64,000 bases of DNA, taken from positions 149,278 through 213,277 of the forward strand of contig CAZENT010000001.1 of assembly GCA_964513845.1 (NCBI GenBank). Reading direction: 5' to 3'. The notes beneath the pieces were generated by a model. The model had not been told where the DNA came from. It saw only the letters and a list, made by a program, of their open reading frames with translations, and ran no database searches. Source of the DNA: an uncultured Pseudomonadales bacterium (GTDB taxonomy: Bacteria > Patescibacteriota > Microgenomatia > UBA1400 > MFAQ01). The position numbers and the translations under genes were made by a program. Positions within the stretch are counted from its first letter, which is position 1; the number at the start of each line of letters is the position of its first letter. This document shows positions 12,986 to 63,259 of this stretch, piece by piece.

Positions 12986-13122
12986 GATTTGTTGACGCTT
13001 GGTCCGCGGCTGAGCGTCAAAGAGTCGTGGAGAATTTTGATAAGTATTGTGGACGCAGGCGATTCTTCGTCTGATTCTTGGTAGGCTAGCCTTGCGTGGA
13101 TTTTAGAAGCTAACTTGCTTGA

Positions 13123-13710: not shown

Positions 13711-13787
13711 ATTATTTAGTATAGGGGTTTTGTGATATTTGGTCCGTGGGGTTGCGCCATTTGTTGCGAAAATAATGGGTGGAAATT

Positions 13788-16787
13788 CTATCTTTGGCAA
13801 TGACTTTTAAACGGACAGGTGGCACATTTGGTGAAGTCTTCGGTACGGGTGAAGTCCAGGTCGCGGATCTTAGCAACAGAGTCTTTGATTTCTTTTTTTA
13901 GATTGGTGACATCTTCATCGGAGATAATGAAATTTTCTCGGTGGAAATTATTTTGGGCATCGGGCTCAAGGAAGTCTATCTGCGTTTCTTTAACTTCGTA
14001 CTGAAAAGATTTATCCAGCTCGGCCAAAAGCTGGTAGAAAGTGAGCTGACGTTTGTAATCGCCGTCGGAGTTCTTGGTGTTGCCTTCTATTTCATTTCTG
14101 GTTTTGGATTTTCCTGTTTTGTAATCGATGACACGAACGTGATTGTTGGTATGAGATTGCTTCGTCGTCCCTACTCCTCGCAATGACGGAGTCGTGTACT
14201 CGATGCGGTCAACTTTGCCAGTAAGAGCAATATCATCGAGATGAATTTGAGAAGTGAGAGAGGTGCCGAAGTTTTTTTCGGTAAAAAGACAGGCTGTGAA
14301 ATCTTTGGCATAGTGATCGTAATATGCGGTGAGAACTTTTTTACCATGAGCGAGGCGATCTTTGAAATCGGTTTCGGTCATGATTTCTCTTTGGAGAGCG
14401 GCTTCAAAATCATTGAGGAAAATTTCTTTTGGTTCTAATTTGCCATTATTTAGCTCTCTATACAGCTGCTCAAGGGCGTAGTGAACGGCGGTACCGAAAC
14501 ACATGGCCGGAGCTTTAGCTCTCGGGATCCTGTAGAGATTATCGAGCTTGAATTTATAGTGACAGCGGAGATATGTATTGAGGGAGGTTGGGGAAAACTT
14601 GAGGTCTTTGACTATTTCTCGCAGATACTCGGCTTCGCCATCGTGAAGAGTGACTTCGGCGGCTGGAGACATAAGGGAGGCGAGAATTTTGGTGGCGGCA
14701 CTTTCGAATTTTTTGGTGTCCACTTTTTCAATATTTTCTTTCGGCAAGTCTTCAAGGAACATTGCAGGAAAAATCATTTTTGCAGAGTTTGGATACTCGG
14801 TAGAGCCGGTGAGGTAAAGATTTTGTTTGGCTCTTGTGAGGGCTACATAAAAGAGACGGCGTTCTTCGGCATTCTTATCCTCCTTATCGGTATCTTCGTA
14901 AACGATAATGCCGTCGGGGAGCTTAATCATTTCTCTTTTGGCTTTGTTGCCCCAGTGAGTATCGGCAAAACGATATATGTAAACAGTATGCCACTCGAGA
15001 CCTTTGGCTTTGTGGGCAGTGGTGAGGGTGACAGCGTTTTCATTACCAATGAGGACTTGCTCCTCGAGCTTTAGGCTATTCTCCTCCATGATGCCCAGGT
15101 TATAGACGTAACCAAAAAGATCGAGATTGGGAAAAGAAGCAGACTGAGATTTGACGTCGTCAAAGAGAGTGCCGAAACGATTGAGTTCGATGATGGGCTG
15201 GGGAAGGCTCAAAATATATTCGAGAATCCCCGACTCTTGAAGAATCATCTGGAACATTTCAGGGAGAGTGTGGGTAGCAGCTTTGGAATTCCAAGATACA
15301 AATTTGAGATACGCCTCGACGACTTTATCGTCAAGCTCAGGATGATCGGACTGGAGAGAATCTACTAGGGATTTTCTTTCTTGATGAGCAGCTCTACTAA
15401 TTTTGAGAATGGAAAGTGGATTGAGATGAAAATAGGGATAGTTTAATACGGTAAAGAGGTCGAGATCATCGACAGTGTTGTGCAGAGTCGTGGTTACTCT
15501 TAAAATTTTGAGAAACTGGCTGACAAGAGGGGTGGCCAAAATATTGGTGCCACCTTCGAGGCGATATGGAATGTTTTTTTGTTTGAATAAATTGACCAAG
15601 ATATCGACGTCTTTGTTTTCTTTGACTATCACTGCAAAACCTTTGGGGCTTGCCCCCTTTTCAATTTTTTCTTGGATGTCACTCGTTATGAATTCGTCCT
15701 CAAGAATGGTGGAGCTAAACTCGACGGTTTTGATTTTCTGATCTTTCAAATCGGTATTGGAGTGGAGGGCAGTTTCTCCCAAGAGCGCGGCGGCGGAGTC
15801 GAGAATGGTTTGGGTGGAACGATAGCTTTGATCGAGAACTATTTTGGTGTGACCAGGGAAGGATTTTTCAAATTCGCGAACATTTTCTTTGCTGGCGCCC
15901 TGGAAACGGAAAATACTTTGATTAGGGTCTCCGACCGCAAAGATATTGGCATTTTCTCCCCAAAAACTGGCAAGAGCGAAGATGAGGCGGTTTTGGGCCG
16001 AGTTGGTGTCTTGATATTCATCGACTAAAAGATACTGGAATTTTTCTTGGTAACCCAAGAGAAAATCGGCGTCTTTTTCAAAGGCTTCGACAACCCAGTT
16101 GATCATGTCATTGAAATCAAATCTGCCTAATGACGTCAGTTTGTTTTGATATTTTTCGTAAATATCTAAGAGATCGAGATTTTTGCCAACTAGTTTTTCT
16201 TTCTCGAGACGAGCAGTTTTGCTGAGATTGTCTTTTTCAATTTCATATTCGTCTTTGAGAAGTGAAACCAGTTGCGAGTATTTTTCGATGGTGAAGCCCT
16301 CGCGCTTAAGGTCGGAGATACTACTTAAGATGTAGGGGAGATAAAAGAGGGTGTCACCTATGGGTTTTAAGAGGACGAAGTTTCCCTGCTGCAAAATTTC
16401 TTGGATAATTTGAATCTTTTCTAGATCGGTGACGTTTTGCATACCGGCAGGCTTACTAAATCTCTCTGGATTTTGGGCAATAACATCGGCGCAAAAAGCA
16501 TGAAAAGTGGTGACTTGGACAAGATAGCCGTCTTTACCAATTAGTTTGATGAGACGCTCACGCATTTCTTTGGTGGCCGCTTCGGTAAAGGTGAGGGCAA
16601 GGATGGAGCTGGGGTCAGTGTCAGTTTCTTTGAGAATATTGGCAATTCTGGTGGTGAGAACTTGGGTTTTGCCTGTGCCTGGACCTGCGAGAACCAAAAC
16701 AGGACCCTCGATAGTATCGACAGCTTTTCTTTGCGCGTCGTTTAATTTTTTATACACTGAGTCAAATTCGAGAGTGGTTTGAGGCAT
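13788..16787 (-). CDS. UvrD-like SF1 helicase fused to a C-terminal PD-(D/E)xK nuclease with a Cas4/AddB-type 4-Cys Fe-S cluster
   Basis: N-terminus AGPGTGKTQVLTTR, VDEYQDTN, SFRFQGAS, YRSTQTIL. C-terminal ~250 aa carry RCHYKF ... VIDYKTGKSK (D/ExK) ... CATCPFKSHC (C-x_n-CxxC-x5-C). Confidence 0.8.
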   Translation of the reverse strand: MPQTTLEFDSVYKKLNDAQRKAVDTIEGPVLVLAGPGTGKTQVLTTRIANILKETDTDPSSILALTFTEAATKEMRERLIKLIGKDGYLVQVTTFHAFCADVIAQNPERFSKPAGMQNVTDLEKIQIIQEILQQGNFVLLKPIGDTLFYLPYILSSISDLKREGFTIEKYSQLVSLLKDEYEIEKDNLSKTARLEKEKLVGKNLDLLDIYEKYQNKLTSLGRFDFNDMINWVVEAFEKDADFLLGYQEKFQYLLVDEYQDTNSAQNRLIFALASFWGENANIFAVGDPNQSIFRFQGASKENVREFEKSFPGHTKIVLDQSYRSTQTILDSAAALLGETALHSNTDLKDQKIKTVEFSSTILEDEFITSDIQEKIEKGASPKGFAVIVKENKDVDILVNLFKQKNIPYRLEGGTNILATPLVSQFLKILRVTTTLHNTVDDLDLFTVLNYPYFHLNPLSILKISRAAHQERKSLVDSLQSDHPELDDKVVEAYLKFVSWNSKAATHTLPEMFQMILQESGILEYILSLPQPIIELNRFGTLFDDVKSQSASFPNLDLFGYVYNLGIMEENSLKLEEQVLIGNENAVTLTTAHKAKGLEWHTVYIYRFADTHWGNKAKREMIKLPDGIIVYEDTDKEDKNAEERRLFYVALTRAKQNLYLTGSTEYPNSAKMIFPAMFLEDLPKENIEKVDTKKFESAATKILASLMSPAAEVTLHDGEAEYLREIVKDLKFSPTSLNTYLRCHYKFKLDNLYRIPRAKAPAMCFGTAVHYALEQLYRELNNGKLEPKEIFLNDFEAALQREIMTETDFKDRLAHGKKVLTAYYDHYAKDFTACLFTEKNFGTSLTSQIHLDDIALTGKVDRIEYTTPSLRGVGTTKQSHTNNHVRVIDYKTGKSKTRNEIEGNTKNSDGDYKRQLTFYQLLAELDKSFQYEVKETQIDFLEPDAQNNFHRENFIISDEDVTNLKKEIKDSVAKIRDLDFTRTEDFTKCATCPFKSHCQR

Positions 16788-26310: not shown

Positions 26311-26391
26311 TTGTGTCTATGATAGCAGATTGTGTCAAGTTGGCGAACAACTACAAATTTTTTATCACTAGGGTAAAAATATGTTTAAGTG

Positions 26392-26465
26392 AGGCCGAGG
26401 CGGGATTCGAACCCGCGAATGAGAGTTTTGCAGACTCTTGACTTGGACCACTTGTCTACCCGGCC
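26392..26465 (-). tRNA. tRNA-Cys (anticodon GCA), 74 nt, CCA not encoded
   Basis: Manual fold: acceptor GGCCGGG/CTCGGCC with one G-U pair, discriminator U73, anticodon stem AGAGU/ACUCU, loop CUGCAAA (U33-GCA-A37), T-arm GCGGG-UUCGAAU-CCCGC, and a D-loop with GG. Confidence 0.8.
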
Positions 26466-26620: not shown

Positions 26621-27265
26621 ATGGCATATGTATTGGGATTTATTTATGCCGATGGAGCGGTTGAAGACTGTAGATCGTCTTCGAGAACGTGTTATTTGTT
26701 GTTATCAAATAACGACATTAAAATTCTTAAAGAAATGCTGTCTGTTATGTCTACCGAACAGACTATCCATAGAGTAGACCCTCGAACGATAAAAATACGA
26801 GATAAGGAATATTGGTGTAAGACATCGTACTATGTCAGGATTGGAAACAAAATAATCTACGATGATCTGATTAAATTAGGTCTGTGTCCTCGAAAATCCT
26901 TAGTCATCGAATTACCAGAAATACCTGATAAATATTTTGAATATTTCCTTCGAGGATATTTTGACGGAGATGGGTGTATCAACATTGAGAAAAATAAGAA
27001 GAATAGGGTGAATATTATTTTTACTAGTGGAAGCAAACTGTTTCTTGAACAATTGGCAGAAAAAATTGTTGGCGTGTACCCAAGAATTAAAAGCTCAGTC
27101 TCTTATGGATTTGGGGCATATAAATTGAGATATAACTGGAGAAATGCACTTATGATTGCAGGATATATTTATCGAGATGTGCACAATGCACCATATTTAG
27201 AATACAAATACACTAAATATTTGCATTATTTAAATTCTAGAGTTAATAGAGATTTCCTGCCTTGA
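26621..27265 (+). mobile_element. Free-standing LAGLIDADG homing endonuclease (double-motif, monomeric type)
   Basis: Two LAGLIDADG motifs, LGFIYADGAV and LRGYFDGDGCI, about 100 aa apart. Located between tRNA-Cys and gap, not inside an intron or intein. Confidence 0.75.
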
Positions 27266-30047: not shown

Positions 30048-30190
30048 ATAGAGTTTCCAACAGAATTGCACAATACTTTGATTGATTTATCAATCATTTA
30101 TCTTGTGTGGATAACTCAATTATTTTGTGGAAATCTGTTTTTAGTCGACTCTATTATTGTTATTATTAAAACTTATTAAGCATAAAAAAA

Positions 30191-30212
30191 GACCCCGTGA
30201 GGGGTCTTTTTT
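30191..30212. terminator. Bidirectional intrinsic terminator (GACCCC-GTGA-GGGGTC, A-run/T-run flanks) between M23 and groEL
   Basis: 6-bp GC-rich stem, 4-nt loop, AAAAAAA upstream and TTTTTT downstream. Confidence 0.7.
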
Positions 30213-32357: not shown

Positions 32358-32382
32358 TAGCACTCATGACCCATGAGTGCTA
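32358..32382. promoter_or_regulatory. CIRCE operator (HrcA binding site) upstream of groES: TAGCACTC-N9-GAGTGCTA
   Basis: Matches the CIRCE consensus TTAGCACTC-N9-GAGTGCTAA in 8 of 9 positions per arm. Confidence 0.75.
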
Positions 32383-32426
32383 TTTTTATATAAATGAAAC
32401 CCCTTTGTCAAGACCTAGAAAATCAG

Positions 32427-33347
32427 TTAGTTGCCAGTAAAAATATTCCAAGTGGAAGTTTTCCATTTATTACCTTCTCTGACAAACGATATTGATGTCA
32501 GTTTTCCATTAGGATCATTTTCTATATAAAATTTAATATCAAATTTAACTGGTTCAGTGTTGTAGAAATCTTCCTCTTCTTTCGCAGAATGGTATTCATT
32601 CAAAACTTCGAATGTTTTATATTGCGTATAGACAGTTCCTGGCCAGTCAATATTTTCAACTTGTTTTTGGGCAGATACTGTTAAAAATGACATTGCCTTA
32701 TTTCGATCATTGTTGATAATGCTTTCTGAGTAACCCTGAATAGCCTCACGTAATTGTGTCTTGTTGCTTGGTTGCGGAGATAAACTTATGTCTGCAAATT
32801 TGAAGGTGGAAATAAATTGAGTAAAGGTGGGTAAATCTAAACTCCCAACACCACAACCCGGTCCAAGACATTGAGAATAAGCAACCAACAAGTATTTGTT
32901 GTTGGATAAATTAAATTCTCTTTGCGTTTCAAACGTATTTCCTTTTGGCTTTCCTTCAAAGATTGTTCCTGTAACAATCTCCCCTAATTTAAGTGTAAAT
33001 TGAAATTCCTTGTCCTTTGATCTTGGATCAACCTCAAGTGTCCACATGTTGGGGTACTTGAAACTATAGCCATAGGTTGTATTTGTATAAGTTTTCCAGT
33101 CCGCAGTTACGTCGATGGTGGGGGTGGGAGTTTCAAGGCCAACAGAGGTAATGGCAACAGTTGGAGTTGGGGTAGCGATGGCTGTTGAACTTTCTGTCAT
33201 GGGGACAAATCGAGAGGCAAGAACACCAATGAGGATACCAAAAAGAATTAAGGCAATAACAATTAAAAAGGTTTTTAGAAAGCCTGATTTTTTAGACGAT
33301 AAGGGTGCTGCTGGTGCGGGAGGAAGTAATGGGGGTTGAGACTCCAT
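32427..33347 (-). CDS. Membrane-anchored protein with a Pro/Thr-rich linker and a C-terminal globular domain (hypothetical)
   Basis: TM helix FLKTFLIVIALILFGILIGVLA and a TPTPT linker. The track start at 33701 overlaps the upstream ATPase gene by 410 nt in another frame, so the start is uncertain; M119 at 33347 is one candidate. Confidence 0.4.
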   Translation of the reverse strand: MESQPPLLPPAPAAPLSSKKSGFLKTFLIVIALILFGILIGVLASRFVPMTESSTAIATPTPTVAITSVGLETPTPTIDVTADWKTYTNTTYGYSFKYPNMWTLEVDPRSKDKEFQFTLKLGEIVTGTIFEGKPKGNTFETQREFNLSNNKYLLVAYSQCLGPGCGVGSLDLPTFTQFISTFKFADISLSPQPSNKTQLREAIQGYSESIINNDRNKAMSFLTVSAQKQVENIDWPGTVYTQYKTFEVLNEYHSAKEEEDFYNTEPVKFDIKFYIENDPNGKLTSISFVREGNKWKTSTWNIFTGN

Positions 33348-36300
33348 CTGTGTCGTTACTGGGGTTGTCGTTTCCAGTTGGGATATTTCCTCCAGGGGCG
33401 GGTTCATCTTTGATTGTGGCAGGAAGACTGGCTCCGGGTTCATCGACTGGGGCTGGGAGGGAAACTCCTCTATCGGGGATAGAGAGGGATGAGTCTGGTC
33501 GGCTGACCAGTTCTCCGGCGGAGTGATCGTCTGGTTTGATGGTGCGGGAGGAAGAGTCAGATCCTGTGTTTGAAGAGAATCTTGAGGAAGACTGTCTTGA
33601 GGATCCGGTGTCTGATTTGGGTTCATTTTGGTTGTGGTGATTAATAACTTTTGTTTCTGATGCAAGAATGCCCTTTGTTTTAAGAATCTCAAGGGCAGCA
33701 CTGGTAATTCTTAACTTGCCTCCCTGGGACGAGGATTTGGCTAGCTCAAGAGCCTCAGTGAAACTTACCCATTTGAAATCATTATATTCTTCATCTGAAG
33801 GGAACTTCAAACTACTTGATGAGGAGGTGGCATAGAGAAAATAATAGGTTTTCCCCTTCATGGTGACAGAAACACCGGAGTCGGTTTTTAGATCTTTAAG
33901 TCCTTGTTTGTCTGGTGGAAACTCAATACGATCGACAGACACAAAAGTAGGCTTGAAACTGGTTTGTTTGACAAAATCTTGTCCTAGCTCTTCTGTCATT
34001 TCGCGTTTGAAAGCGTCCGTAAGAGTCTCTTTGTTGTCTACTCCCCCTTGAGGAAGCTGCCATAGATTGTGAATTTTGTGATAAACGAAAAGAATTTTGC
34101 CGGAATTTATGAAACAACCAACTACGCTGGGACGGAAACCTTCTTGACGGTCTTTGTCTAGATCTTCCACGTTTGGCTCTTTTGAGGCGTTGGTCGGAGA
34201 TTGCCGCGTCGCTTCGCTTCTCGCAATGACGGGAGTTGGTTGAGATACTGTTGAAGCGGGTTGATTGCTTGGCGAGGATTGCCGCGTCGGAGTATCTTCT
34301 CTTTTCTGAGATGGACTGGTGTGCGATGCCGTGGTTGAGGCAGATAATGAGGGGACCTGAGAAGGGTTTTGAGTACGAGTATCAGTTTGTGCAGGAAATG
34401 ATTGAGGCGTATACGGTTTGGGGGATGATTGTTGAGGGCGATATGGCGTAGCTTGGGAATACGATCGATCTTCACCCCGAGGTCCTTGAGGCTTAGATGA
34501 TGATCGATAGTCTTGTTTGGGAGGAGGTGCGCTGGGAGAATAGACTGAGGCTTGCGTCATGTCGAGAGCTTCGGTTTTGCGGTAGTACTGCTCTTCGCTC
34601 ATGGCGATAATTTTTTCGCGATTGCCATTTTTGTTTTCTGGGAGAGGGAGGGTGGTGGCAGCAAAAGGATTAGAAATGGAAGCGTTGACGGAAATTTTGA
34701 CGATGATTTGATATCTAGCTAACCCAACAAGATCATCTTGGGTATAAAAATTACCGAGCTCGTTCATCAGACGATTAGCATCGGCGGCGCCAACAACAAA
34801 ACTAATGAGGGTACCGGCGTTTCCAAAAATAGCATCTTGAATTTCTATGGGAAGCTGAGCGGTGTACTGGTTAGCAAGAATCAGGTTCAAACGATACTTA
34901 CGAGCCTCGGAGAGAATTTTGATAAAGGATGTGGTGGCAAAGTTCTGGAACTCATCAACATAAAGAAAGAAGTCTTTTCTTTCGCTTTCGGCCATGTTGG
35001 CACGATTCATGGCAGCAATTTGAATTTGAGAGATAAACATGGCACCCAGAAGAGCGGCGTTGTCTTCTCCAATTTTGCCCTGAGGTAGATTGAGGATGAT
35101 GATTTTGCCGCTATTCATCAAGTCTTCAAAATCAACCGTGGACTTGGGATGACTAATGATGTCACGAATTGTGGGTGAAGTGATGAATTGACCAACTTTG
35201 TTTAGAATAGGAGAAATAGCTTCGGACTGGAATTTTTCGGAATATTTGTCGTATTCATCGTGCCAGAAATTGTGAAGCACTGGATCTTGAACTGCGGCAA
35301 GATATTCTTCGCGCCAAGGTTTGTTGGTGAGAAGTCTGGGAACATCTAGAAGAGTGGCACCAGGCTTGGCTACCAAAGTGAGAAGGGTGTTTCTGAGAAT
35401 GTATTCCAAACGAGGACCCCAGGAGTTGCCGTAGAGTTTACTGAAAATGGACACGATACCGGAAGCAACTAGCTCGGCATAGGCTTGGTTTTTGACGTAA
35501 AGAGGGTTCAGGTGAAATGATTTACCAACAACAGAAGGATCAAGATAAGCAACGTCGTTAATTCTGTCTGCTGGGATGTAATCAAGAAGATGTTCGGCCG
35601 TGTCGCCGTGAGGATCAACGAGAGCCATGCCCTCTCCATGACGAATGTCACTAATAGCCATGTTGGCCAAAAGAGTGGATTTACCGGTACCGGATTTACC
35701 CAAAACGTAAACGTGACGACGGCGATCTTCCCCTTTTTTCATGCCAAAAGAAACCATGCGATTTTTGTATTCGGTTTTGGCAAAGAAATTAATTTCGTGC
35801 TTTTCTTCTTCAGACATGTCTTCGGCAATGGGAAGATTGGCTGGCGGTTCTCCACGCAGAGTTTTACCCCAAGCAATACCTTTGATGTTGGCAAGATTAA
35901 AGCCCGGAAGATGATAGATGGCGGCAATTTCGGCGTAGTTTAGATATTGATATTGATTTGAGTAACGAGCGGAACGATCAATGATCATTTCACGAAGTTT
36001 TTTGAGTGAGGTAGGGCTAACAACCTTGAGTCTAAAACTGTTGCCTTCAGACAAAGAATAGGTACCAAAGGCGGCCGAAATTTGAGAGATAAGCTGATTT
36101 GAAGAGGTAACGCTTGAGGAAACAGCAACCAGACGAATATCACAACCAAAAGCTTGATAAACGAGTTTCTTTTCAATAAAAGGCTTTTGGGTACTGGGCT
36201 GAGCCTTTACGCCCTCAGCGACAGGAGCGGGTTCTAATGACTTTCGAAGGGCTTTTTGCCAGTTTACTGGAGCAGCAAATAGACAGATTTGGATGACTGC

Positions 36301-36735
36301 AGCTTGGCCAGATGGAATCCTGGAAAGGCTACCCAAAATAGCGGTCATTTGATCAACTTTCTCGTCTTCAGTAACATTTATAGGAAGAGATGAGGGTGCA
36401 GAAAGAACCAACTGACCCATCTGAGGCTCTCCATGATTAAGCCAGTCGGCAAGATAATCCTTCATGGGGGTAATGAGAGCTGTGGGGTACTGAGCGGCAA
36501 TTTGAGAACGAACTAGATGCTCCAGACGCTCTGGACAAGCGATTACAAAATAGGTTGTTTGGTTGAGATTAGCTATCTCAAGAGTAATAGTTTCGTAGGT
36601 ATTGAGGAGCCTATCCATAAAACTAGCCTTGAGAGAAGACTTAATTGAAGCTAAAAACTCGACAAAAGCAGCTTGGCCCGTGAGCGAGTCTTTGGCAGGA
36701 CGAATCTGCAGTACCGAATATTTGGGCAAGGCCAT
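33292..36735 (-). CDS. FtsK/HerA/VirD4-superfamily P-loop ATPase (DUF87/TrwB-like) fused via a ~130-aa disordered linker to a canonical NUDIX hydrolase domain
   Basis: Walker A VYVLGKSGTGKSTLL plus ALVDPHGD; Walker B FFLYVDEFQNFAT; coupling-protein-like ARKYRLNLILANQYTAQL. S/P/Q/T-rich linker. Nudix box GGVDNKETLTDAFKREMTEELGQ (G-x5-E-x7-REUxEExGU). S-rich C-terminal tail. Confidence 0.75.
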   Translation of the reverse strand: MALPKYSVLQIRPAKDSLTGQAAFVEFLASIKSSLKASFMDRLLNTYETITLEIANLNQTTYFVIACPERLEHLVRSQIAAQYPTALITPMKDYLADWLNHGEPQMGQLVLSAPSSLPINVTEDEKVDQMTAILGSLSRIPSGQAAVIQICLFAAPVNWQKALRKSLEPAPVAEGVKAQPSTQKPFIEKKLVYQAFGCDIRLVAVSSSVTSSNQLISQISAAFGTYSLSEGNSFRLKVVSPTSLKKLREMIIDRSARYSNQYQYLNYAEIAAIYHLPGFNLANIKGIAWGKTLRGEPPANLPIAEDMSEEEKHEINFFAKTEYKNRMVSFGMKKGEDRRRHVYVLGKSGTGKSTLLANMAISDIRHGEGMALVDPHGDTAEHLLDYIPADRINDVAYLDPSVVGKSFHLNPLYVKNQAYAELVASGIVSIFSKLYGNSWGPRLEYILRNTLLTLVAKPGATLLDVPRLLTNKPWREEYLAAVQDPVLHNFWHDEYDKYSEKFQSEAISPILNKVGQFITSPTIRDIISHPKSTVDFEDLMNSGKIIILNLPQGKIGEDNAALLGAMFISQIQIAAMNRANMAESERKDFFLYVDEFQNFATTSFIKILSEARKYRLNLILANQYTAQLPIEIQDAIFGNAGTLISFVVGAADANRLMNELGNFYTQDDLVGLARYQIIVKISVNASISNPFAATTLPLPENKNGNREKIIAMSEEQYYRKTEALDMTQASVYSPSAPPPKQDYRSSSKPQGPRGEDRSYSQATPYRPQQSSPKPYTPQSFPAQTDTRTQNPSQVPSLSASTTASHTSPSQKREDTPTRQSSPSNQPASTVSQPTPVIARSEATRQSPTNASKEPNVEDLDKDRQEGFRPSVVGCFINSGKILFVYHKIHNLWQLPQGGVDNKETLTDAFKREMTEELGQDFVKQTSFKPTFVSVDRIEFPPDKQGLKDLKTDSGVSVTMKGKTYYFLYATSSSSSLKFPSDEEYNDFKWVSFTEALELAKSSSQGGKLRITSAALEILKTKGILASETKVINHHNQNEPKSDTGSSRQSSSRFSSNTGSDSSSRTIKPDDHSAGELVSRPDSSLSIPDRGVSLPAPVDEPGASLPATIKDEPAPGGNIPTGNDNPSNDTDGVSTPITSSRTSSTLIV

Positions 36736-36754
36736 AGTACTAGTATATACAAAA

Positions 36755-37366
36755 CTAGATCGAAGCGGGAGCGGAAACGATGGTTTGGACCGGCTGTTTG
36801 GAGCCTGAATCGACTATCTTTATCTCGGAGAAAAGAACGTTTTCGATAATGAGACCTTTGTCGGCAAAGAGCTTGTTGAGCTCATCTTTAAGAGCGTTTT
36901 CGATTTTTGAGCGTTCGGCACCTATTTCGTCTGATTTGTATTGGCTAAAGCTGGATGAAATACGACTTCGAGAGTAAGGGCGAACAACTTTGGATATAAA
37001 GTTGTCTCCAATATTTTCCCAGAGCTCAGGAGCATTGGCTTTATCGAGCTTAAAAAGAATGGAGCCTTCGATGGAGATAGTTTTGTTGTCTTTGGTCATG
37101 GCAACAATAGGCTCATCCCCTAGTGACTCTTTTTGAGAAAGATCAAAGCCGTGACGGATGGTGTACTCAAGAATTTGAGCGTTGAAAAGTTTGGCAATCT
37201 GCCAAAAAGGGATTTTGAGGTGAAGTCCAGGTCCCCAGACACGCTTGAGAACACCTAAACCACGATCATAAACACAGGCAACATGTCCTGGAGGAACGGA
37301 TATAAAAAAACCGCCGACGATTTCGTCAACGAGGAAGGATACAACCAATTTATCAAAGTCTGCCAT
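36755..37366 (-). CDS. SPFH/band-7 (stomatin/prohibitin/HflC-like) domain protein
   Basis: VPPGHVACVYDRGLGVLKRVWGPGLHLKIPFWQ is typical of the SPFH N-terminus. Confidence 0.65.
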   Translation of the reverse strand: MADFDKLVVSFLVDEIVGGFFISVPPGHVACVYDRGLGVLKRVWGPGLHLKIPFWQIAKLFNAQILEYTIRHGFDLSQKESLGDEPIVAMTKDNKTISIEGSILFKLDKANAPELWENIGDNFISKVVRPYSRSRISSSFSQYKSDEIGAERSKIENALKDELNKLFADKGLIIENVLFSEIKIVDSGSKQPVQTIVSAPASI

Positions 37367-37377
37367 AGCTTCTTATA

Positions 37378-38184
37378 TTATATCGTCTTTTCAGGTGAAG
37401 TTGGGGTTGGCATGGGTGGAAGAGGTGTGTCTGAGGCTGGTTGGACTTCGGTGACTGGCTCGGGGGCGGCTTTTTTGGTGAAGGAGTAATAAAGATAGAG
37501 TGCTTGTTTGATAAGGCGAACCACCATGGTGAATGCGAGGGAGGTGATGATGTAGACTTTTTTGCCTGCCGGAAGGAACATAAAAATGACAAAACAGATG
37601 ATAGGAAAAATGATAACCAGAGAAACGAAGTCTTTTTGGCTCGGCTTGACTGGAGAAAAATATAGGTGCATGGCTTCGTTGGCGGCAATCATTAAACTCT
37701 GAATGATATTCAGGGAGTTGTTGGTGCGAGATAGGTCATAAATCCCAAGGAACATAAGATCGATGGGGGTTTGAATCTTAGGCATAAATTTATAGATCAG
37801 ATGAAGATCGGCACCCTCAAGACCGGTGGTAAAAATACGATAGAGCATGACGATAACGAGAGCCTGGAAAATAACGTTAAAAATCTCCGACAAAATAGCT
37901 CCCGGTTTTTGACGCATGATTCGGTTTGTCTCCGACTTGAGCTTGATGGGATCAGAGGCGAGCTCAGTTTTAAGTTGTTTGATTTGTTGGGAAATTTTGT
38001 ATTTGTCTTCGTCGGAGCGATCACCGATGGCATCGATGGGTAGAAAAATAATACGAACAGCTACGGCGAACAAAATCATGGCGATACCCATGTCCGGATT
38101 AGGAAAAATCTGACCAACTAACCAGTAAATACCAACGAGTAGATTAAAAAATGGTTGATAAAAATAAGTGGTAAAAATATCCAT
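37378..38184 (-). CDS. YidC/Oxa1-family membrane insertase (second, divergent paralog)
   Basis: GIAMILFAVAVRIIFLPI (the conserved TM2 R) and five TMs with a C-terminal Pro-rich tail. The canonical yidC is at 52106-52858. Confidence 0.6.
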   Translation of the reverse strand: MDIFTTYFYQPFFNLLVGIYWLVGQIFPNPDMGIAMILFAVAVRIIFLPIDAIGDRSDEDKYKISQQIKQLKTELASDPIKLKSETNRIMRQKPGAILSEIFNVIFQALVIVMLYRIFTTGLEGADLHLIYKFMPKIQTPIDLMFLGIYDLSRTNNSLNIIQSLMIAANEAMHLYFSPVKPSQKDFVSLVIIFPIICFVIFMFLPAGKKVYIITSLAFTMVVRLIKQALYLYYSFTKKAAPEPVTEVQPASDTPLPPMPTPTSPEKTI

Positions 38185-38195
38185 GACTGGAGTAA

Positions 38196-39011
38196 TTATA
38201 GCGAGTTATGGTCAAGATGCTGAGTTAATACTTGAGAAAGGTCTTTTTTATGAAAGAAGGCTGAGTGAATAGAAACAACTTCGGTGGTTTTTTTGGGGAG
38301 CATGTAGAGATACTGAAGAATATACAGAAAAAAATTTAAGGGAGCAAAAAATAGACATAGTTTTTCTGATTTTTTTTGAGAAATCCCCTTTCTAGATATT
38401 TCTTGGTATGCGTTGGCAAGGTATCGAGAGGTCCAACAATTTTGTTTGATAAACCTAGCATGAGTATCTCCCCTGTCGAACAAAGGAAGTGTTTGAAGCA
38501 CTTCGTGAGCAGTGTAGAGATTGCGACGAGTTTGAGGAACAGAAAGTGAAGCAGTATCTAACCAGAGATTGGGGCAAAAAGAATTCGTTTCTTTGGGAGT
38601 GATATCCCCCGGATGACGGCGATTAAACTTAAGTGACAAAAAGAGAAGGAAAAAGGGCCGGGTTAACCAAAGAGTATTTTGGGAGGTGACAATTAGTAAG
38701 TCCAGATCGTCGTTTTTGTGGCTGTTGTTGGCGGAAACAGATCCGGTAAGGGCAATTAATTTTATCGAAGGAAAAAGCCAGGCATATTTAAGAAGTTTTT
38801 GAGCGTAAAAAATTTTTTTGAGGGTAGTCTTATTAAGTGTTTCTCTGAGTTTGGTGTCTTTTGAAGAAAGTGGGTGGAGATATTTTTTTACTGACGAAGG
38901 AGAAATTGGACGAGAGGTAATTAGCCAGTAATGGACTTCTTGTGGCGAAAGAGGGAAATGAAAAAAAGCCGAGTAGGCAATGGTCTTGGCTACGGAGTTG
39001 GCAAGATTCAT
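38196..39011 (-). CDS. Pol-beta-superfamily nucleotidyltransferase-like protein (GS...DDLDLL), possibly with a C-terminal HEPN-like R-x5-H
   Basis: LTGSVSANNSHKNDDLDLLIV is the minimal NTase signature (hG[GS] ... [DE]h[DE]h). RRNLYTAH in the C-terminal half fits Rx4-6H, but that could be chance. Confidence 0.4.
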   Translation of the reverse strand: MNLANSVAKTIAYSAFFHFPLSPQEVHYWLITSRPISPSSVKKYLHPLSSKDTKLRETLNKTTLKKIFYAQKLLKYAWLFPSIKLIALTGSVSANNSHKNDDLDLLIVTSQNTLWLTRPFFLLFLSLKFNRRHPGDITPKETNSFCPNLWLDTASLSVPQTRRNLYTAHEVLQTLPLFDRGDTHARFIKQNCWTSRYLANAYQEISRKGISQKKSEKLCLFFAPLNFFLYILQYLYMLPKKTTEVVSIHSAFFHKKDLSQVLTQHLDHNSL

Positions 39012-39014
39012 GTC

Positions 39015-40484
39015 TTAGGGGGCAGGCGTGGCGGCAGGAGCAGCGACTAATCCGTATTGAGACAGAACTTGAATGAATCCGCTATTTAGGGTGGAAAGTG
39101 ACTTAGCTGAGTCTTGGTTTTGGGCTACAGCGTTGACGGCATCTTCCAGATATTTTATTAGGCGTGAGTTAAGGGCGGTTTTGGCATCTCTGGTGTTGCT
39201 GGCGGTGTAGAAAGTGCGAGCCGTGTCTAGGCTTGTTACGTAGGGAGCAACGACAGGATTGTTTTGAGCTAGATTAGCCACGGCTTTATTTGCCGGTGCT
39301 TGGGGATACTCTCTGTCTGCCAGTGCAGCATCAAACAAAATTTGTTGAGCTTTGGCTGAGGCTAGGAAACTAATAAATTTCCAGGCTTCCTGAGGATGTT
39401 TGGAGTTTTTACCAACAGCTTCAAACCAAAACGAGGTCCAGTTGACGGTATCTGAGTCCGGAAGTTGAGGAACGGAAACGGTTTGCCAAGAAAGAGAAGG
39501 GTTGATCGCCTTGATCTCCGGTGCCCTCCAGATGGGAGCAATAATCATAGCAACCTTTTCATTGGCAAAAGCAACGGTTGAGGGTGGCATGGTGTCATCC
39601 CAAACTCTGTGCTTCGTAACAAAATCAGTGTAATAGGTAATTGTGGCAGCAACTTCGGCACCTTTTAGATCGGTGAGCTTAACACCTGCCTGAAGAAGCA
39701 TTAGACTTACGATATCGGACCAGTTGTCTACATTGGAGGTGTTCCCTAGAGCAATACCGGCGCGATTTAGCCTGCCTGTAAGCGGATCAACTTCTTTGAG
39801 AGTTTTGGCGGCGGTAAGAACATCTTCCCAGGTTTTGGGCGGAGTAAGTGATTTTTGTTGAAACATGGCGTTGTTTACATATAAAGCAAGCCCGTCCATA
39901 GCAATAGGAACACCATATACCTGAGTTCCAGAAACTAACATCTTGGACACAATGGGGTAAAAATTGGTGGACATTTCTGTAGCCGAAACAGAGTTGGCTG
40001 GAGCCGGAAAAAGATTCTTGGCAAATAAAGGAAGCCAGGTGGAATGAAGCCTGACAATGTCTGGCGAGCTTTGACCCTCGAGAGCGGTTTTGAGACGATC
40101 TTGGTAATCTTGAGGGCTTTGTAACTGATAGCTGATTTTTATACCTGGATTTTGTTTCTCGAACTCATCAATAACTGGCTTCATAACCGATGATGGCTCC
40201 CAAAGTCCGTAATAAGTAAGCGAAACGGTTTGCCCTGAAGTAACAGATTGAGAAGTTGATTTTGAACCAAGAAGTTTGGAAACACCAAAAACTATTAGCC
40301 CAATTACGATAACGCCGGCGAGGATAGGAAGAATAATTTTGAGCGGAGAAGGCTTAACAACGGGTGGCTTGGCTGAGTCTGGAGCTTGATAGCTGGGTGG
40401 TGGTGGAGTAGCTTCTTCCGGTGTGGGTAAAGGAGTTACATCCCCTGGTGTTGATGGTCCTGGAATTGGGAATTGATTGTCCAT
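39015..40484 (-). CDS. Extracellular solute-binding protein (family 1, sugar-type) with a Pro-rich cytoplasmic tail and TM anchor; orphan (no permease nearby)
   Basis: SBP_bac_1-like core (SLTYYGLWEPSSVMKPVIDEFEKQNPGIKISYQ) preceded by N-terminal PxxP repeats and a TM helix. Confidence 0.55.
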   Translation of the reverse strand: MDNQFPIPGPSTPGDVTPLPTPEEATPPPPSYQAPDSAKPPVVKPSPLKIILPILAGVIVIGLIVFGVSKLLGSKSTSQSVTSGQTVSLTYYGLWEPSSVMKPVIDEFEKQNPGIKISYQLQSPQDYQDRLKTALEGQSSPDIVRLHSTWLPLFAKNLFPAPANSVSATEMSTNFYPIVSKMLVSGTQVYGVPIAMDGLALYVNNAMFQQKSLTPPKTWEDVLTAAKTLKEVDPLTGRLNRAGIALGNTSNVDNWSDIVSLMLLQAGVKLTDLKGAEVAATITYYTDFVTKHRVWDDTMPPSTVAFANEKVAMIIAPIWRAPEIKAINPSLSWQTVSVPQLPDSDTVNWTSFWFEAVGKNSKHPQEAWKFISFLASAKAQQILFDAALADREYPQAPANKAVANLAQNNPVVAPYVTSLDTARTFYTASNTRDAKTALNSRLIKYLEDAVNAVAQNQDSAKSLSTLNSGFIQVLSQYGLVAAPAATPAP

Positions 40485-40549
40485 AATAAAATATCAGCTA
40501 AAATAGTAGAGTTGGATTGTACACCACACTCTATTAGAGTATAGCAAGA

Positions 40550-52105: not shown

Positions 52106-52858
52106 TTATTTTCCGGTCACACGAGTGACAAAAAGACGAGCTTTTTTGTAAGCCGGAATAAGACCACCCCAACCGGAGAAGAAGTATTGCTGAACGAGAG
52201 AGAAGACAGTAGAAATTACCCAGAAAAGAACAAGGCCAGATTGAAAGTTGAGGGAGATAATGACCGTCATGAGAGGCATCATGTAGATCATTTGCTGCTG
52301 CATACTGGAAGCCATTTCGAGGCTGTTTTCTTCTTTTTTCTTTTCTTCTTTCTTTTTGGGATTTTTTACTTCAGACACAATGCCTGATTGCATCATAAGA
52401 GAGAAAACGAGCTGAGAAACACCAGCGAGAATGGGCATGATGTAGGTTCGGTCTGGTTTGGTGAGATCGAGATACAGGAAATAGGGGTTCATGTTGGTTC
52501 CACCAACTGATGATTGCCCGAGGAAAAACATAAACACCTGGTAGAGAGAGATGAGGATGATGATTTGAAAAATTTGAGGAAGACAACCGGCGGCAGGATT
52601 AATACCTTTTTCTTTGTAGAGTGCGATCTGGGCTTGTTGAAGTGCAGTTTTGTCGGTGTGTTTGGCTTTAAGTCTGTCTAGCTCTGGTTTGAGATCCTGC
52701 ATTTTTTTGGCAGAGCGAAGGGAGGGGATAACTAATGGAAGAAGAATTACTTTGGTGATAAGCGTGATGGCGATAATGGAAAGACCAAGGTTGCCACCAA
52801 AGAGTTGGTAGAAAAACAAGAGAGCTTGGTAAAGGATTCCGTTTATTGGTGCGAGCAT
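52106..52858 (-). CDS. yidC: Membrane protein insertase YidC (short Gram-positive/CPR type)
   Basis: IITKVILLPLVIPSLRSAKKMQ and GCLPQIFQIIILISLY signatures. Confidence 0.9.
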   Translation of the reverse strand: MLAPINGILYQALLFFYQLFGGNLGLSIIAITLITKVILLPLVIPSLRSAKKMQDLKPELDRLKAKHTDKTALQQAQIALYKEKGINPAAGCLPQIFQIIILISLYQVFMFFLGQSSVGGTNMNPYFLYLDLTKPDRTYIMPILAGVSQLVFSLMMQSGIVSEVKNPKKKEEKKKEENSLEMASSMQQQMIYMMPLMTVIISLNFQSGLVLFWVISTVFSLVQQYFFSGWGGLIPAYKKARLFVTRVTGK

Positions 52859-53132: not shown

Positions 53133-53987
53133 CTAATTGGATAATTTTTTTTGATTACTGCTTGATTTGATTTTTCTAAGGAAATTTTGTGAGGTAACGA
53201 TACTTTTACCAATTTCTTTCTCTAATTTTTCTCGTGCTCCACCGGCGATTTTACCTCCCCGATGAGATATTTTTTTGTTTTCTTCAAAACCATGAGGGTG
53301 TTCTGTTTTGGTGATTTCTGTTGTCGAAGCTTCTCCCAACATCGAGAAGAGGAGTTCAAGATCTGTCATGTGATCTCGAAGGTTTTGTCTTTCCAGTCCC
53401 TTTATCTTTTTGTGTTCAGAGGGAGATATGCCAAAGGCTGCCTTGGAGATTTCTGCTGTCAGAATGGCGTAATCCAGTTGCTGTCTGACTCCATGGATTT
53501 GCCATTGTTCAGTTAGATCTTCACGAATAACTATAGATCGCATTCTTTTTTCGATCCAACCATCTGGATATCCCTTGGCTTTGTAGATAGCTCTGACTCT
53601 TTTTTGGGCAAGCTCCGGATCTTCAATTTCTTGAATTCTTTCATATCCCACCTTTGCTAACCAACGCTTGAATGGTTCTGCTTTGGGAGAGGGGATGGAC
53701 TGAATAATACGAAAAACGCTCTCTGTGTTTGCACAGTCTGTATCGTATTTTTTTCCATCTGATGACGCTAATTTCAGTTGTCTACAAATTGTAGACAACT
53801 CAACTCCATCGCTTGACTTAACCCTAGTTTTCATGGCGTTCCAATACACCCTTGGTTTTTTACTATTCGTTAACGCCTCGATAACATCAACAACTGAAAA
53901 CCACCATTCGTTTTTGAAGATGATTTTTCTAATCTCCTTTTTTTGGAAAATCGCTATCCTTGTTAACTCCTCAAATTTGTTGGACAT
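53133..53987 (-). CDS. Bro-N domain protein, DinD-like (DNA-damage-inducible protein D family)
   Basis: N-terminal Bro-N-like NEWWFSVVDVIEALTNSKKPRVYW and a DinD-like central/C-terminal region. It is inserted between rnpA and yidD. Confidence 0.5.
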   Translation of the reverse strand: MSNKFEELTRIAIFQKKEIRKIIFKNEWWFSVVDVIEALTNSKKPRVYWNAMKTRVKSSDGVELSTICRQLKLASSDGKKYDTDCANTESVFRIIQSIPSPKAEPFKRWLAKVGYERIQEIEDPELAQKRVRAIYKAKGYPDGWIEKRMRSIVIREDLTEQWQIHGVRQQLDYAILTAEISKAAFGISPSEHKKIKGLERQNLRDHMTDLELLFSMLGEASTTEITKTEHPHGFEENKKISHRGGKIAGGAREKLEKEIGKSIVTSQNFLRKIKSSSNQKKLSN

Positions 53988-54718: not shown

Positions 54719-56101
54719 ATGGAAATTGACGCCAGTCATCTGTGGCAAGCCGTTTGTGGAGACCTTTCCGTGTCGATGTCTCAGGCCGGTTTCAATGGAT
54801 TCGTAAAACCTTGTTTTATAAGGACGGTGACTCCTATTGATAACGAGAGAATTATCGTAGAGTTAGCGGCGCCGACAGCGTATCATGTGCGCACAATTGA
54901 CGAAAAATATTTTAGTTCAATCAAGCAGTCGATGGAGAAGATCTCACATAAAAAATGTGACGTGGCTTTAATCGTCGTTGAAGCAATAAAGGAGGAGAAA
55001 GAAACTAAAACTAGCGCAAGATCTGAAAAAGAAGAAGCAAATATGAATTTGTTTGCCTCACCAGAACCAGATAAACAAGCCGGCAATAACTTAAATCCAA
55101 GATATTTGTTTGAAAATTATGTTGTTGGTAGTTCAAATCGATTAGCTTTTGCGGCCGGAAAAGCGGTGGTGGATTTCCCCGGAACAAGACACAATCCTTT
55201 GTTTATCTATGGAGGAGTAGGAGTTGGTAAAACTCACTTAATGCACGCCGTGGGCCATGAACTGGTAAAAAAAGGGGTTGGGAAGGTGGTTTATGTAACC
55301 AGTGAGCAGTTTACTAATGACTTAGTATCATCACTTCGCTCAAAAATGACAGATGCTTTTAAAAAGAAGTATCGTCAAGTTGGCGCTTTGTTGATTGACG
55401 ATGTGCAGTTCTTTGGCGGCAAAGACTCAACTCAAGAAGAGTTCTTCCACACTTTTAACGAGCTAACAAATAAGTCGGCTCAAATTGTGATGACTTCCGA
55501 TAGAAAGCCTCAAGATATTGAAGGTTTAGAAGACAGATTAAAAAGTCGCTTTTTGGGAGGAATGGCGGTAGATATCGGTTTGCCCGATTATGAAATGAGA
55601 CTCGCTATCTTGCGCCAGAAAGCTCAAGAAATTAAAGTAGAAGTGGAAGATGGTGCTTATGAGTTGATGGCTAACAACTTCAACACTAATGCACGTGAAT
55701 TAGAAGGCACTTTTGTTAAATTGGCAGTCGGAGCAAGCTTGGAAAATGGAGTGCTCACAAAAGAAATGGTGCAACAAACAATGGGTTTGCCGGCTAACTT
55801 TGTGAAGGAGATAAAAGTCAGACCGATCAAAGTAGTTTCGACGGTAGCTAAGTATTTTGATTATAGAAACAAAGATCTTCTGGGGACAAGCAGAAAGGCC
55901 GATCTGGTGGTGGCTCGACATATTGCGATGTTTCTTTTGCGCGATACTTTGAATATCCAACTGGAAAAAGTGGGGGAGATTATGGGTGGAAGAGATCACA
56001 CGACTGTGATGCACGCAGTGGAAAAAATGAAGGATGAAGTGAGTAATAATGCCGATGTACGGCGTAAAATAACGGCTATAAAACAAGCGTTATACACTTA
56101 A
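54719..56101 (+). CDS. dnaA: Chromosomal replication initiator DnaA
   Basis: AAA+ motifs GGVGVGKTHL and LLIDDVQF, plus the domain IV HTH DHTTVMHA. Confidence 0.95.
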   Translation: MEIDASHLWQAVCGDLSVSMSQAGFNGFVKPCFIRTVTPIDNERIIVELAAPTAYHVRTIDEKYFSSIKQSMEKISHKKCDVALIVVEAIKEEKETKTSARSEKEEANMNLFASPEPDKQAGNNLNPRYLFENYVVGSSNRLAFAAGKAVVDFPGTRHNPLFIYGGVGVGKTHLMHAVGHELVKKGVGKVVYVTSEQFTNDLVSSLRSKMTDAFKKKYRQVGALLIDDVQFFGGKDSTQEEFFHTFNELTNKSAQIVMTSDRKPQDIEGLEDRLKSRFLGGMAVDIGLPDYEMRLAILRQKAQEIKVEVEDGAYELMANNFNTNARELEGTFVKLAVGASLENGVLTKEMVQQTMGLPANFVKEIKVRPIKVVSTVAKYFDYRNKDLLGTSRKADLVVARHIAMFLLRDTLNIQLEKVGEIMGGRDHTTVMHAVEKMKDEVSNNADVRRKITAIKQALYT

Positions 56102-56407: not shown

Positions 56408-57517
56408 ATGAAAATAATTGTTCAATCAGGAGAGCTTAAAAAATATCTGGGAATAGTAAGCAGGGGAGTGAGTAGCAGGCCTCAGTTACCAATATTGTCG
56501 GGAGTTCTTCTAAAAGCGGAAAATGATGAGGTGAGTTTAGTGGCAACCGATTTGGAAGTGAGTTTTTGGTTGAGTCTTTCGGCGAAGGTAGAAGAAGAGG
56601 GTGAAGTGGTGGTTCCGGCAAAACTATTTTCTGAGCTGGTTTCAGGTTTTCCTTCCGGCAACGTAATGATAACTGTGGAAAAACACGTGGTAAAAATTGA
56701 AGTTGATGGAATTGTATCGGAAATAGTGGGCCAGGGAGCTGAAGACTTCCCCAGTATCCCCAGAGCAAGTAAGGCTCAAGTAGTTCTTCGAAGCGGAGAC
56801 TTTAGACAAAAAGTGGATAGAGTGTGTGTGAGTGCGGCCAGAGACGACACTCGACCAGTGTTGACTGGAGTACTTTGGGAAATTAATGAAGAAAAAGTGT
56901 CTTTGGTGGCGACTGACGGATATCGATTGTCGGTGGATAAGTTGACTTTGTCAAAAACAGAACTAGAAAAAGAAACGAGATTAATTTTACCTGCAAGATC
57001 TTTGCAAGAAATTTCAAAAATGTTGGGTGAAACCGGTGTTGATGTTTTTTCTTTGGAGTTTAGTAAGGAAAATCAACAAGTCATTTTTAAAGTGGGAGAG
57101 ATTGAGGTAACTTCGAGATTGATTGCAGGCGAGTTCCCGCCTTATCAACAGATTATGCCGAATACTTACTCGTCGAGAGCTGTCTTTGGTAAAGCAGAGA
57201 TACTAGAAGGCGTCAAAAGAGCTAATTTGTTTGCTCGAGATAATGCCAATATTATTAAGTTGCAAATGGAAAAAGATGGTGTGGTGGTTCGAGCTGAGAG
57301 TTCTCAGATTGGTACAAGTGTAAGTAAGGTAGAGGCAGTGGTTGAGGGTGAAGAATTAACAGTGGCGTTTAACGCAAGATATTTACTGGATTATCTGGCC
57401 AGCAGTACTTCGGAAAAAGTAGTATGGGAAACAGAGGGAGAACTGAAACCCAGTGTTTTTCGTAACGAAGATGAAGAAACTTGGGTGCAGGTGGTAATGC
57501 CTGTTAGGGTGCAGTAA
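56408..57517 (+). CDS. dnaN: DNA polymerase III beta sliding clamp
   Basis: Three-domain clamp (369 aa) in the standard position after dnaA. Confidence 0.9.
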   Translation: MKIIVQSGELKKYLGIVSRGVSSRPQLPILSGVLLKAENDEVSLVATDLEVSFWLSLSAKVEEEGEVVVPAKLFSELVSGFPSGNVMITVEKHVVKIEVDGIVSEIVGQGAEDFPSIPRASKAQVVLRSGDFRQKVDRVCVSAARDDTRPVLTGVLWEINEEKVSLVATDGYRLSVDKLTLSKTELEKETRLILPARSLQEISKMLGETGVDVFSLEFSKENQQVIFKVGEIEVTSRLIAGEFPPYQQIMPNTYSSRAVFGKAEILEGVKRANLFARDNANIIKLQMEKDGVVVRAESSQIGTSVSKVEAVVEGEELTVAFNARYLLDYLASSTSEKVVWETEGELKPSVFRNEDEETWVQVVMPVRVQ

Positions 57518-57971: not shown

Positions 57972-57976
57972 TTATA

Positions 57977-60721: not shown

Positions 60722-60726
60722 ATCAG

Positions 60727-62574: not shown

Positions 62575-62597
62575 GATTAAGTATAACCGAAAAGGGG

Positions 62598-63254: not shown

Positions 63255-63259
63255 TTTCT

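Follow-up and report, generated by a model that had tools for sequence, protein, structure and literature searches.

Gene content and spacing of the array

The window, a 64,000-nucleotide (nt) stretch of contig CAZENT010000001.1, carries a compact array of six genes at positions 32427-40484, all on the minus strand (Table 1). From the upstream end they encode a solute-binding protein (SBP), a nucleotidyltransferase-like (NTase-like) protein, a YidC-family insertase (YidC2), an SPFH/Band-7 protein, a P-loop ATPase fused to a NUDIX domain (ATPase-NUDIX), and a proline/threonine-rich (PT-rich) membrane protein. A previous sequence-only reading of the window had taken the short gaps between these genes as a sign of an operon for one membrane-associated machine. 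All six open reading frames (ORFs) that it named are present, and five of its six family assignments hold, the exception being the hint of a HEPN motif in the NTase-like protein. The membrane bias of the products is real as well: SBP, YidC2, and PT-rich contain clear transmembrane (TM) segments, and SPFH has a weak hydrophobic stretch at its N-terminus.

The closest relatives of the ATPase (58-78% identity) come from metagenome-assembled genomes (MAGs) of Candidatus Collierbacteria, with remoter relatives throughout Patescibacteria. The genome of the window is Candidatus Collierbacteria-like and very compact, with a coding share of about 95% of the window sequence and abutting genes even on opposite strands. 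Successive gaps in the array are 3, 11, 11, and 19 nt, followed by the overlap of the ATPase and PT-rich genes. According to the window as a whole, such spacing is the background of this genome: 28 of the 40 co-directional neighbour pairs (70%) have a gap of at most 25 nt, with a median of 7 nt, and these tight pairs make up 28 of all 61 adjacent pairs. By expectation, a window holds about 1.16 runs of six co-directional genes spaced this tightly; this one has two, the other being the VirB4 cluster at 57504-63777. The tight packing is therefore a correct observation, ordinary for this genome, and does not bear the weight of operon evidence that was put on it. The same caution extends to Patescibacteria with about 95% coding sequence, no use of Shine-Dalgarno sites, and promoters placed in upstream stop codons, in which short gaps are not evidence for operons.

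Table 1. Positions of the array genes, their predicted signals, and the related features discussed in the text
Feature	Positions	Strand	Remarks
SBP	39015-40484	minus	
NTase-like	38196-39011	minus	
YidC2	37378-38184	minus	
SPFH	36755-37366	minus	
ATPase-NUDIX	33292-36735	minus	
NUDIX domain	33742-34131	minus	residues 869-998; intact Nudix box G-x5-E-x7-REMTEELG
PT-rich	32427-33347/33701 (ORF)	minus	conserved start 33626
TACAAT box	40516-40521	minus	65-nt divergent vanW/SBP spacer; candidate promoter of SBP-NTase
YidC2 box TATAAT	38195-38200	minus	ends 10 nt before ATG; last sense codon of NTase + TAA stop
SPFH box TATAAT	37377-37382	minus	ends 10 nt before ATG; ATA + TAA stop of YidC2
ATPase box TATACT	36742-36747	minus	ends 6 nt before ATG; leaderless-type geometry
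Hairpin + U7	37311-37332		-11.5 kcal/mol; 34 nt inside SPFH ORF
CIRCE operator AGCACTC-N9-GAGTGCT	32359-32381	minus	upstream of groES; TTGACA box 32406-32411
groEL terminator	30185-30212		strong, bidirectional, -19.8 kcal/mol; A-run/T-run either side; between convergent M23 peptidase and groEL
Type IV secretion cluster	57504-63777 and past window end		next to dnaA (54719-56101) and dnaN (56408-57517)
914-residue protein	57977-60721		weak C39-like peptidase end
VirB4-like ATPase	60727-62574		type IV secretion cluster
218-residue protein	62598-63254		conserved with VirB4-like ATPase
RfaE-II-like fusion or neighbour of NTase-like protein	L032 7295-8617; L082 1342-2694 (P0359); L088 672-1202; L089 9401-9931; L092 2375-2863		loci of sister lineages

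Conservation of the neighbourhood

Gene order was compared across 80 loci fetched around homologues of the ATPase (designated by L numbers), along with further contigs found via individual proteins. Besides the window, all six genes occur in order only in L001-L004. Locus L081 and the contig of homologue P0114 keep the five-gene core SBP-NTase-YidC2-SPFH-ATPase and have no PT-rich gene; their ATPases are 57-62% identical to that of the window and carry either no C-terminal domain or an S1 domain. The order of the five-gene core is thus kept in 7/7 contexts of the Collierbacteria clade (the window, L001-L004, L081, and P0114). The flanks of these loci keep their order too, with L25, leuS, tsaD, and vanW on one side and groES-groEL, M23 peptidase, pgk, gap, and a PEGA protein on the other. 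As these housekeeping genes are conserved equally well, no conservation of the array beyond general synteny is seen, and synteny that includes housekeeping flanks is no indicator of shared function.

In more distant loci the array comes apart. L089, with YidC2 39% and leuS 43% identical to those of the window, reads vanW, SBP-NTase, an inverted cytidylyltransferase-like gene (CTP_transf), YidC2-SPFH, and groES-groEL, with no ATPase. The corresponding genes are NTase-CTP_transf-YidC2-SPFH in L088 and SBP-NTase-CTP_transf-YidC2 in L092. YidC2 and SPFH are missing both from L005 (Shapirobacteria), where SBP-NTase-ATPase is followed by a CYTH-like protein, two Gp49/HTH toxin-antitoxin pairs, and groESL, and from L082, which has SBP, an NTase::CTP_transf fusion, MFS, VIT1, and groESL. 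In L032 the ATPase is convergent with NTase::CTP_transf-SBP, next to vanW. As for the toxin-antitoxin pairs of L005, they are tandem, HigB-like in their Gp49 part, and lie between ATPase and groES (13045-14405). The linkage of the six genes that the operon proposal called for is therefore found only in part: it holds in L001-L004 and, for five of the genes, in L081 and P0114, whereas the array splits in L005, L082, L089, and L032. The MFS and VIT1 genes of L082 occupy the same slot as these pairs, and the stretch before groESL, with its different cargo per lineage, behaves like a hot spot for insertions.

The lines along which the array splits are the same throughout: SBP and NTase are never separated in the contexts examined, and neither are YidC2 and SPFH. 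The ATPase keeps other company in the remaining ~75 Patescibacteria loci. Its neighbours are VirB4/PrgI-like type IV secretion genes with dnaA-dnaN in L006, L007, and L009, a sigma-region-4/HARE-HTH protein with topA and dprA in Saccharibacteria, and, further, secDF. Hidden Markov models built from YidC2 and SPFH found no YidC or SPFH gene within 10 kb of the ATPase in any of these ~75 loci.

Transcription signals

A TATAAT-like box whose end lies 3-15 nt before the start codon precedes 24 of the 61 gene starts in the window, compared with 5.2% of random positions (binomial P 1.5e-15), and the distances peak at 5-8 nt. Shine-Dalgarno-like cores, on the other hand, precede only 2 of the 61 starts vs 9.8% at random positions. 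Examples of such leaderless-type starts are 11039, 16787, 36735, 47045, and 62574, and several boxes are built from the stop codon of the upstream gene. The pattern matches TANNNT, the published signature of leaderless genes (PMC3160421); no paper describing leaderless-type starts in Patescibacteria was found.

Boxes of this kind stand before three internal genes of the array, and they are conserved in related loci where the surrounding sequence diverges. The -10-like box of YidC2 is found 7-10 nt upstream in L002, L003, L004, L081, and L088 and 16 nt upstream in L089; that of SPFH is kept at 6-11 nt in L001-L004, L081, and L088. The ATPase is preceded by the same TATACT at 6 nt in L001-L004 and at 8 nt in L081, and more broadly 32 of 33 ATPase loci of Microgenomates have a -10-like box 3-12 nt before the gene. 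The NTase gene has no box of its own and begins 3 nt past the SBP stop codon, so SBP-NTase looks like a true bicistron, probably driven from the 65-nt spacer between vanW and SBP. Since the internal boxes follow the SD-free (Shine-Dalgarno-free) leaderless-type pattern of the whole window, a single transcript cannot be inferred from spacing. Of the earlier operon argument, the common direction and the short gaps stand, and against them are the conserved -10 boxes predicted before YidC2, SPFH, and ATPase. Read-through across the array is possible on these predicted signals.

The array is bounded downstream by an independent groES-groEL unit, marked by a CIRCE element, the operator of HrcA. The chance expectation is 0 matches, and no second one occurs in the window; an exact copy precedes groES in each of L001, L002, and L004. 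In the scan for promoters and terminators, this repeat had come up as terminator-like. The element at 30185-30212 behind groEL has the look of a real terminator in this genome. The hairpin with a U-run near the start of SPFH is a doubtful internal terminator, being present only in the window and L004 and lost by synonymous changes in L001-L003 and L081.

Products of the array

SBP belongs clearly to the carbohydrate-binding family of MalE (Pfam SBP_bac_8, 1.3e-34; SBP_bac_1, 2e-33), and its closest solved structures are sugar/maltose SBPs (8art, 1e-20). With one predicted TM segment (residues 50-68), it is a family-1, carbohydrate-type SBP anchored in the membrane as is typical of monoderms. 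In contrast to the SBPs of carbohydrate ABC transporters, no ABC permease or ATPase gene was found alongside it in the window or in L001-L005, L081, L082, L089, and L092; it is instead always paired with the NTase-like gene, which it precedes.

The NTase-like protein reaches only 2e-3 with Pfam NTP_transf_2. Its AlphaFold2 (AF2) model (pLDDT 92.8), however, has the Pol-beta nucleotidyltransferase fold, and the protein carries the G[SG]...D-x-[DE] signature. The domains are a winged helix, a Pol-beta-fold nucleotidyltransferase, and a C-terminal helical domain. The G-S...D-x-D signature, the NTase core, and the helical C-terminal domain are shared with two-domain Pol-beta NTases such as kanamycin NTase/ANT(4') and MNT antitoxins. 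No R-x4-6-H motif in an all-helical HEPN domain was found in it, and the suggestion of a HEPN-like RxnH fails on both structure and conservation. In sister lineages (Table 1) the protein is fused to, or stands beside, a cytidylyl/adenylyltransferase that most resembles RfaE domain II (E values of 1e-21 to 1e-28, under the cutoffs), a gene missing at this position in the genome of the window. This partner, together with a carbohydrate-type SBP, points weakly to sugar-nucleotide or envelope chemistry.

As for YidC2, the sequence-only reading was right to call it a second YidC: a canonical one (60KD_IMP, 1.5e-45) lies at 52106-52858 next to the jag/khpB gene, in an origin-region context. YidC2 itself matches Pfam 60KD_IMP above the gathering score (3.2e-15; 56.9 bits vs cutoff 35) and TIGR03592 below cutoff (53.5 vs 84.3 bits), and it shares only 21% identity over 94 residues with the canonical protein (E 9e-5). 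By hydropathy it has three strongly hydrophobic segments, the first of which contains an Arg (AVAVRIIFLPI). The subfamily is confined to a narrow group of Microgenomates, with 19 cluster representatives at E<1e-30 among 1.84 billion; a protein 100% identical to YidC2 is recorded in public assemblies. Two short YidC proteins per genome, one canonical and one specialised, are also known from monoderms (SpoIIIJ/YqjG, and YidC1/YidC2 of S. mutans). Compared with these pairs, YidC2 of the window is extremely diverged, has a narrow range, and is always followed by an SPFH gene. To our knowledge, an SPFH gene after a YidC paralogue has not been described for the Gram-positive paralogues.

The SPFH protein has 203 residues (Band_7 1.5e-25, 90.7 bits vs cutoff 23.6), a weak hydrophobic segment at residues 7-25, and prohibitin 1 as its closest solved structure (1.3e-9). 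It is a small prohibitin-like Band-7 protein and the invariant partner of YidC2. The two genes do belong together, being adjacent in all contexts with visible DNA downstream of a YidC2 homologue (at least 37% identity), and SPFH keeps 64-90% identity in loci where YidC2 falls to 37-44%. Such a combination of a YidC/Oxa1-family insertase with an SPFH-family protein recalls the quality control of membrane proteins by YidC-HflK/C-FtsH and mitochondrial Oxa1 with its prohibitin ring; a functional YidC-HflKC-FtsH link is documented in E. coli (PMC7618853; bioRxiv 10.1101/2025.05.31.656883). Here, however, there is a single SPFH protein and no HflK/HflC pair, and the link consists of gene adjacency only. 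Scans of the window found no NfeD, second SPFH paralogue, or FtsH gene next to SPFH, whose neighbours are YidC2 and ATPase or groES. The pair is of modest interest: strictly conserved, it could be a simple bacterial model of cooperation between an insertase and an SPFH scaffold.

ATPase-NUDIX has 1147 residues (Pfam DUF87 2e-5 and NUDIX 1.2e-12). It is composed of an N-terminal DUF8128, a TrwB/VirD4-like P-loop ATPase, a long disordered linker, a NUDIX domain resembling RppH and Ap4A hydrolase, and a disordered tail. The ATPase domain is of the FtsK/HerA type with the TrwB fold, and among structures the coupling protein TrwB, rather than HerA, matches it best. No hydrophobic segment up to the TM threshold occurs anywhere in the 1147 residues, so that the protein is soluble, anchorless, and similar to type IV coupling proteins (T4CPs). 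The TrwB-fold P-loop ATPase is shared with the VirD4/TrwB-type T4CP homologues of Patescibacteria (Quinonero-Coronel et al. 2025, PMC12102498). It differs from VirD4/TrwB T4CPs, however, in three respects: the N-terminal membrane anchor is missing; DUF8128 is present, because of which the protein can be aligned with VirB4 from one end to the other; and the C-terminal extension carries a NUDIX domain, replaced by S1 or nothing in sister clades.

The NUDIX domain scores 48.4 bits in Pfam vs a cutoff of 21.1. Its Nudix box, GGVDNKETLTDAFKREMTEELGQ, departs from the consensus G-x5-E-x7-R-E-U-x-E-E-x-G-U only in the last position, which is not hydrophobic. In NCBIfam it comes closest to RNA pyrophosphohydrolase models, none of which reaches its cutoff, and the PDB matches are Ap4A hydrolase (8.5e-7) and also RppH. 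Among homologues P0113-P0120 and in L005, the additions to the ATPase are NUDIX in the clade of the window, S1 in the sister clade, and a separate downstream gene in Shapirobacteria. The product of the latter (L005 12471-12965) matches NE1496 in the PDB (2fbl/3typ, E 1.9e-9), which we take to be a CYTH/triphosphate-tunnel enzyme; Pfam and NCBIfam detect no CYTH domain in it. All these additions (NUDIX, S1, and the neighbouring CYTH protein) point to a nucleic-acid or nucleotide substrate.

PT-rich is a single-pass membrane protein rich in Pro, Thr, and Gln, with the TM segment at residues 144-162 of the long ORF and only faint PsbP-like matches in its ectodomain. The previously assumed start at 33347 is not confirmed and counts as an alternative: a start with M-[ND]-P is common to five genomes (the window and L001-L004). 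In the window this conserved start lies at 33626, which makes the overlap with the ATPase gene 335 nt long instead of 56. In these genomes the disordered tail of the ATPase overlaps the Pro/Thr/Gln-rich N-terminal part of PT-rich by 164-335 nt (33292-33626 in the window), and the PT-rich gene is in the +1 frame relative to the ATPase ORF in 5/5. Because of this constant relation, a programmed +1 frameshift fusing the ATPase tail to PT-rich was considered; both frames are of low complexity. In the window and L004, the ATPase stop falls within Lys codons just before the PT-rich TM helix. PT-rich is absent from L081 and from the P0114 contig, and the gene is variable and dispensable.

Interpretation of the array

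The probable reading of these data is not one machine but three modules, inherited independently of one another and probably promoted independently too, that lie side by side in this lineage specifically. The modules would occupy a slot within a deeply conserved chromosomal backbone, between L25, leuS, tsaD, and vanW on one side and groES-groEL, M23 peptidase, pgk, and gap on the other. The first would be the bicistron of the membrane-anchored sugar-type SBP and the winged-helix/Pol-beta NTase, possibly acting in sugar-nucleotide or envelope chemistry. The second would consist of the fast-evolving YidC2 and the highly conserved prohibitin-like SPFH, and by analogy with YidC-HflKC-FtsH and Oxa1-prohibitin it may insert a subset of membrane proteins within an SPFH ring or scaffold. 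The third would be the soluble DUF8128/T4CP-like ATPase found throughout Patescibacteria, here with its RppH-like NUDIX domain, followed by the dispensable PT-rich protein. It could be a hexameric translocase or coupling ATPase driven by NTP, with a nucleic acid or a nucleotide as its substrate, and might work with the type IV secretion cluster of VirB4, which lies 21 kb from it. Transcription would combine read-through from the SBP promoter with internal leaderless starts at YidC2, SPFH, and ATPase.

Several observations weigh against this three-module reading. No YidC2-SPFH pair has yet been seen anywhere but downstream of SBP-NTase, and the five-gene core persists down to about 57% ATPase identity. 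The YidC2 and SPFH boxes lie slightly past the 5-8 nt peak, inspection by eye showed no good -35 elements ahead of the internal -10 boxes, and the array contains no terminator on a par with that of groEL. Most contexts, moreover, rest on MAG or metagenome contigs, not all of which are long. The array genes may therefore be co-transcribed and functionally coupled to some extent.

An unlikely alternative is that SBP, NTase, the RfaE-II-like NTase, YidC2, and SPFH cooperate as a four- or five-gene envelope unit, for example in sugar uptake and activation combined with the insertion or organisation of membrane enzymes using the sugar, with ATPase and PT-rich as unrelated later insertions. The order SBP-NTase-CTP_transf-YidC2(-SPFH) does recur in L088, L089, and L092 at only 33-45% identity, and YidC2-SPFH is downstream of NTase or CTP_transf in all visible contexts. 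However, SBP-NTase is kept without YidC2-SPFH in L005 and L082, CTP_transf is inverted between the two pairs in L089, and both YidC2 and SPFH carry -10 boxes of their own. Since leuS-vanW and groESL are conserved over the same distance, shared ancestry alone explains the gene order.

The single machine of the sequence-only reading, in which YidC2 and an SPFH scaffold assemble or organise a complex of ATPase-NUDIX, PT-rich, and SBP/NTase, is quite improbable. It agrees with the constant five-gene order in the Collierbacteria clade, with three clearly membrane-anchored products and the weakly hydrophobic N-terminus of SPFH, and with the lack of a strong internal terminator in the array; components of type IV secretion systems (T4SSs) have also been reported in SPFH-containing detergent-resistant membranes of Agrobacterium (PMC8656257). 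The six genes do not form a unit, however: L089 lacks the ATPase, L005 and L082 lack YidC2 and SPFH, and L081 and P0114 lack PT-rich. Lacking a TM segment itself, the ATPase occurs across the phylum without these partner genes, the housekeeping flanks are equally conserved, the internal -10 boxes are conserved, and the spacing is uninformative.

Similarly improbable is a functional supra-operon that arose in spite of modular ancestry. In such a scheme YidC2 and SPFH would form a dedicated insertase-in-a-cage module that in Collierbacteria builds a membrane platform, where the anchorless ATPase-NUDIX would dock and through which the T4SS of Patescibacteria would handle host-derived nucleic acid or nucleotides, the five-gene core being the unit of function.

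An anti-phage or abortive-infection island with NTase, SPFH, and a HerA-like ATPase-NUDIX effector, a context the earlier reading had alluded to, can practically be set aside: PADLOC matches the P-loop region to mad8 (1.1e-17) and HerA models and the NUDIX domain to PDC-S07, and two toxin-antitoxin pairs occupy the same slot in L005, but these matches are generic, SPFH, NTase, YidC2, and PT-rich have none, SBP has a single one at E 0.0081, the ATPase is structurally closest to TrwB, the NTase-like protein has no HEPN domain, and the clade-wide core synteny from leuS/vanW to groESL is the opposite of a variable defence island.

Type IV secretion cluster and other features of the window

The VirB4 cluster (Table 1) lies 21 kb from the ATPase in the window, and the DUF8128 ATPase stands directly beside it in L006, L007, and L009. 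Proximity of the Patescibacteria T4SS cluster to dnaA has already been described (PMC12102498). No relaxase family was detected by general family scans among the annotated and scanned ORFs of the window. An anchorless T4CP-like ATPase present phylum-wide bears on the role of the relaxase-less Patescibacteria T4SS and of its unlinked coupling-protein homologues.

GC skew is positive in all 2-kb bins of the window (positions 1-64000; 0.02-0.34), independently of gene strand, and keeps its sign across dnaA-dnaN, so that the usual switch at the origin is not visible in the window. Between the yidC-jag genes and dnaA lies a BRO-N domain protein (53133-53987), whose family is typically found in phages and viruses. 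Beside tRNA-Cys (26391-26465) is a free-standing ORF that resembles homing endonucleases of the LAGLIDADG type (26621-27265; LAGLIDADG_3, 1.2e-9); among the fetched loci, only L005 shares it. A SET-domain protein (5949-6440) stands directly upstream of two tandem FemAB-family genes (6444-8282); SET-domain proteins are uncommon in bacteria. Finally, many public MAG records with this Patescibacteria synteny (L001, L002, L004, L007, L011, L013, and others) are titled 'uncultured Pseudomonadales' or 'Gammaproteobacteria', which look like taxonomic mislabels.

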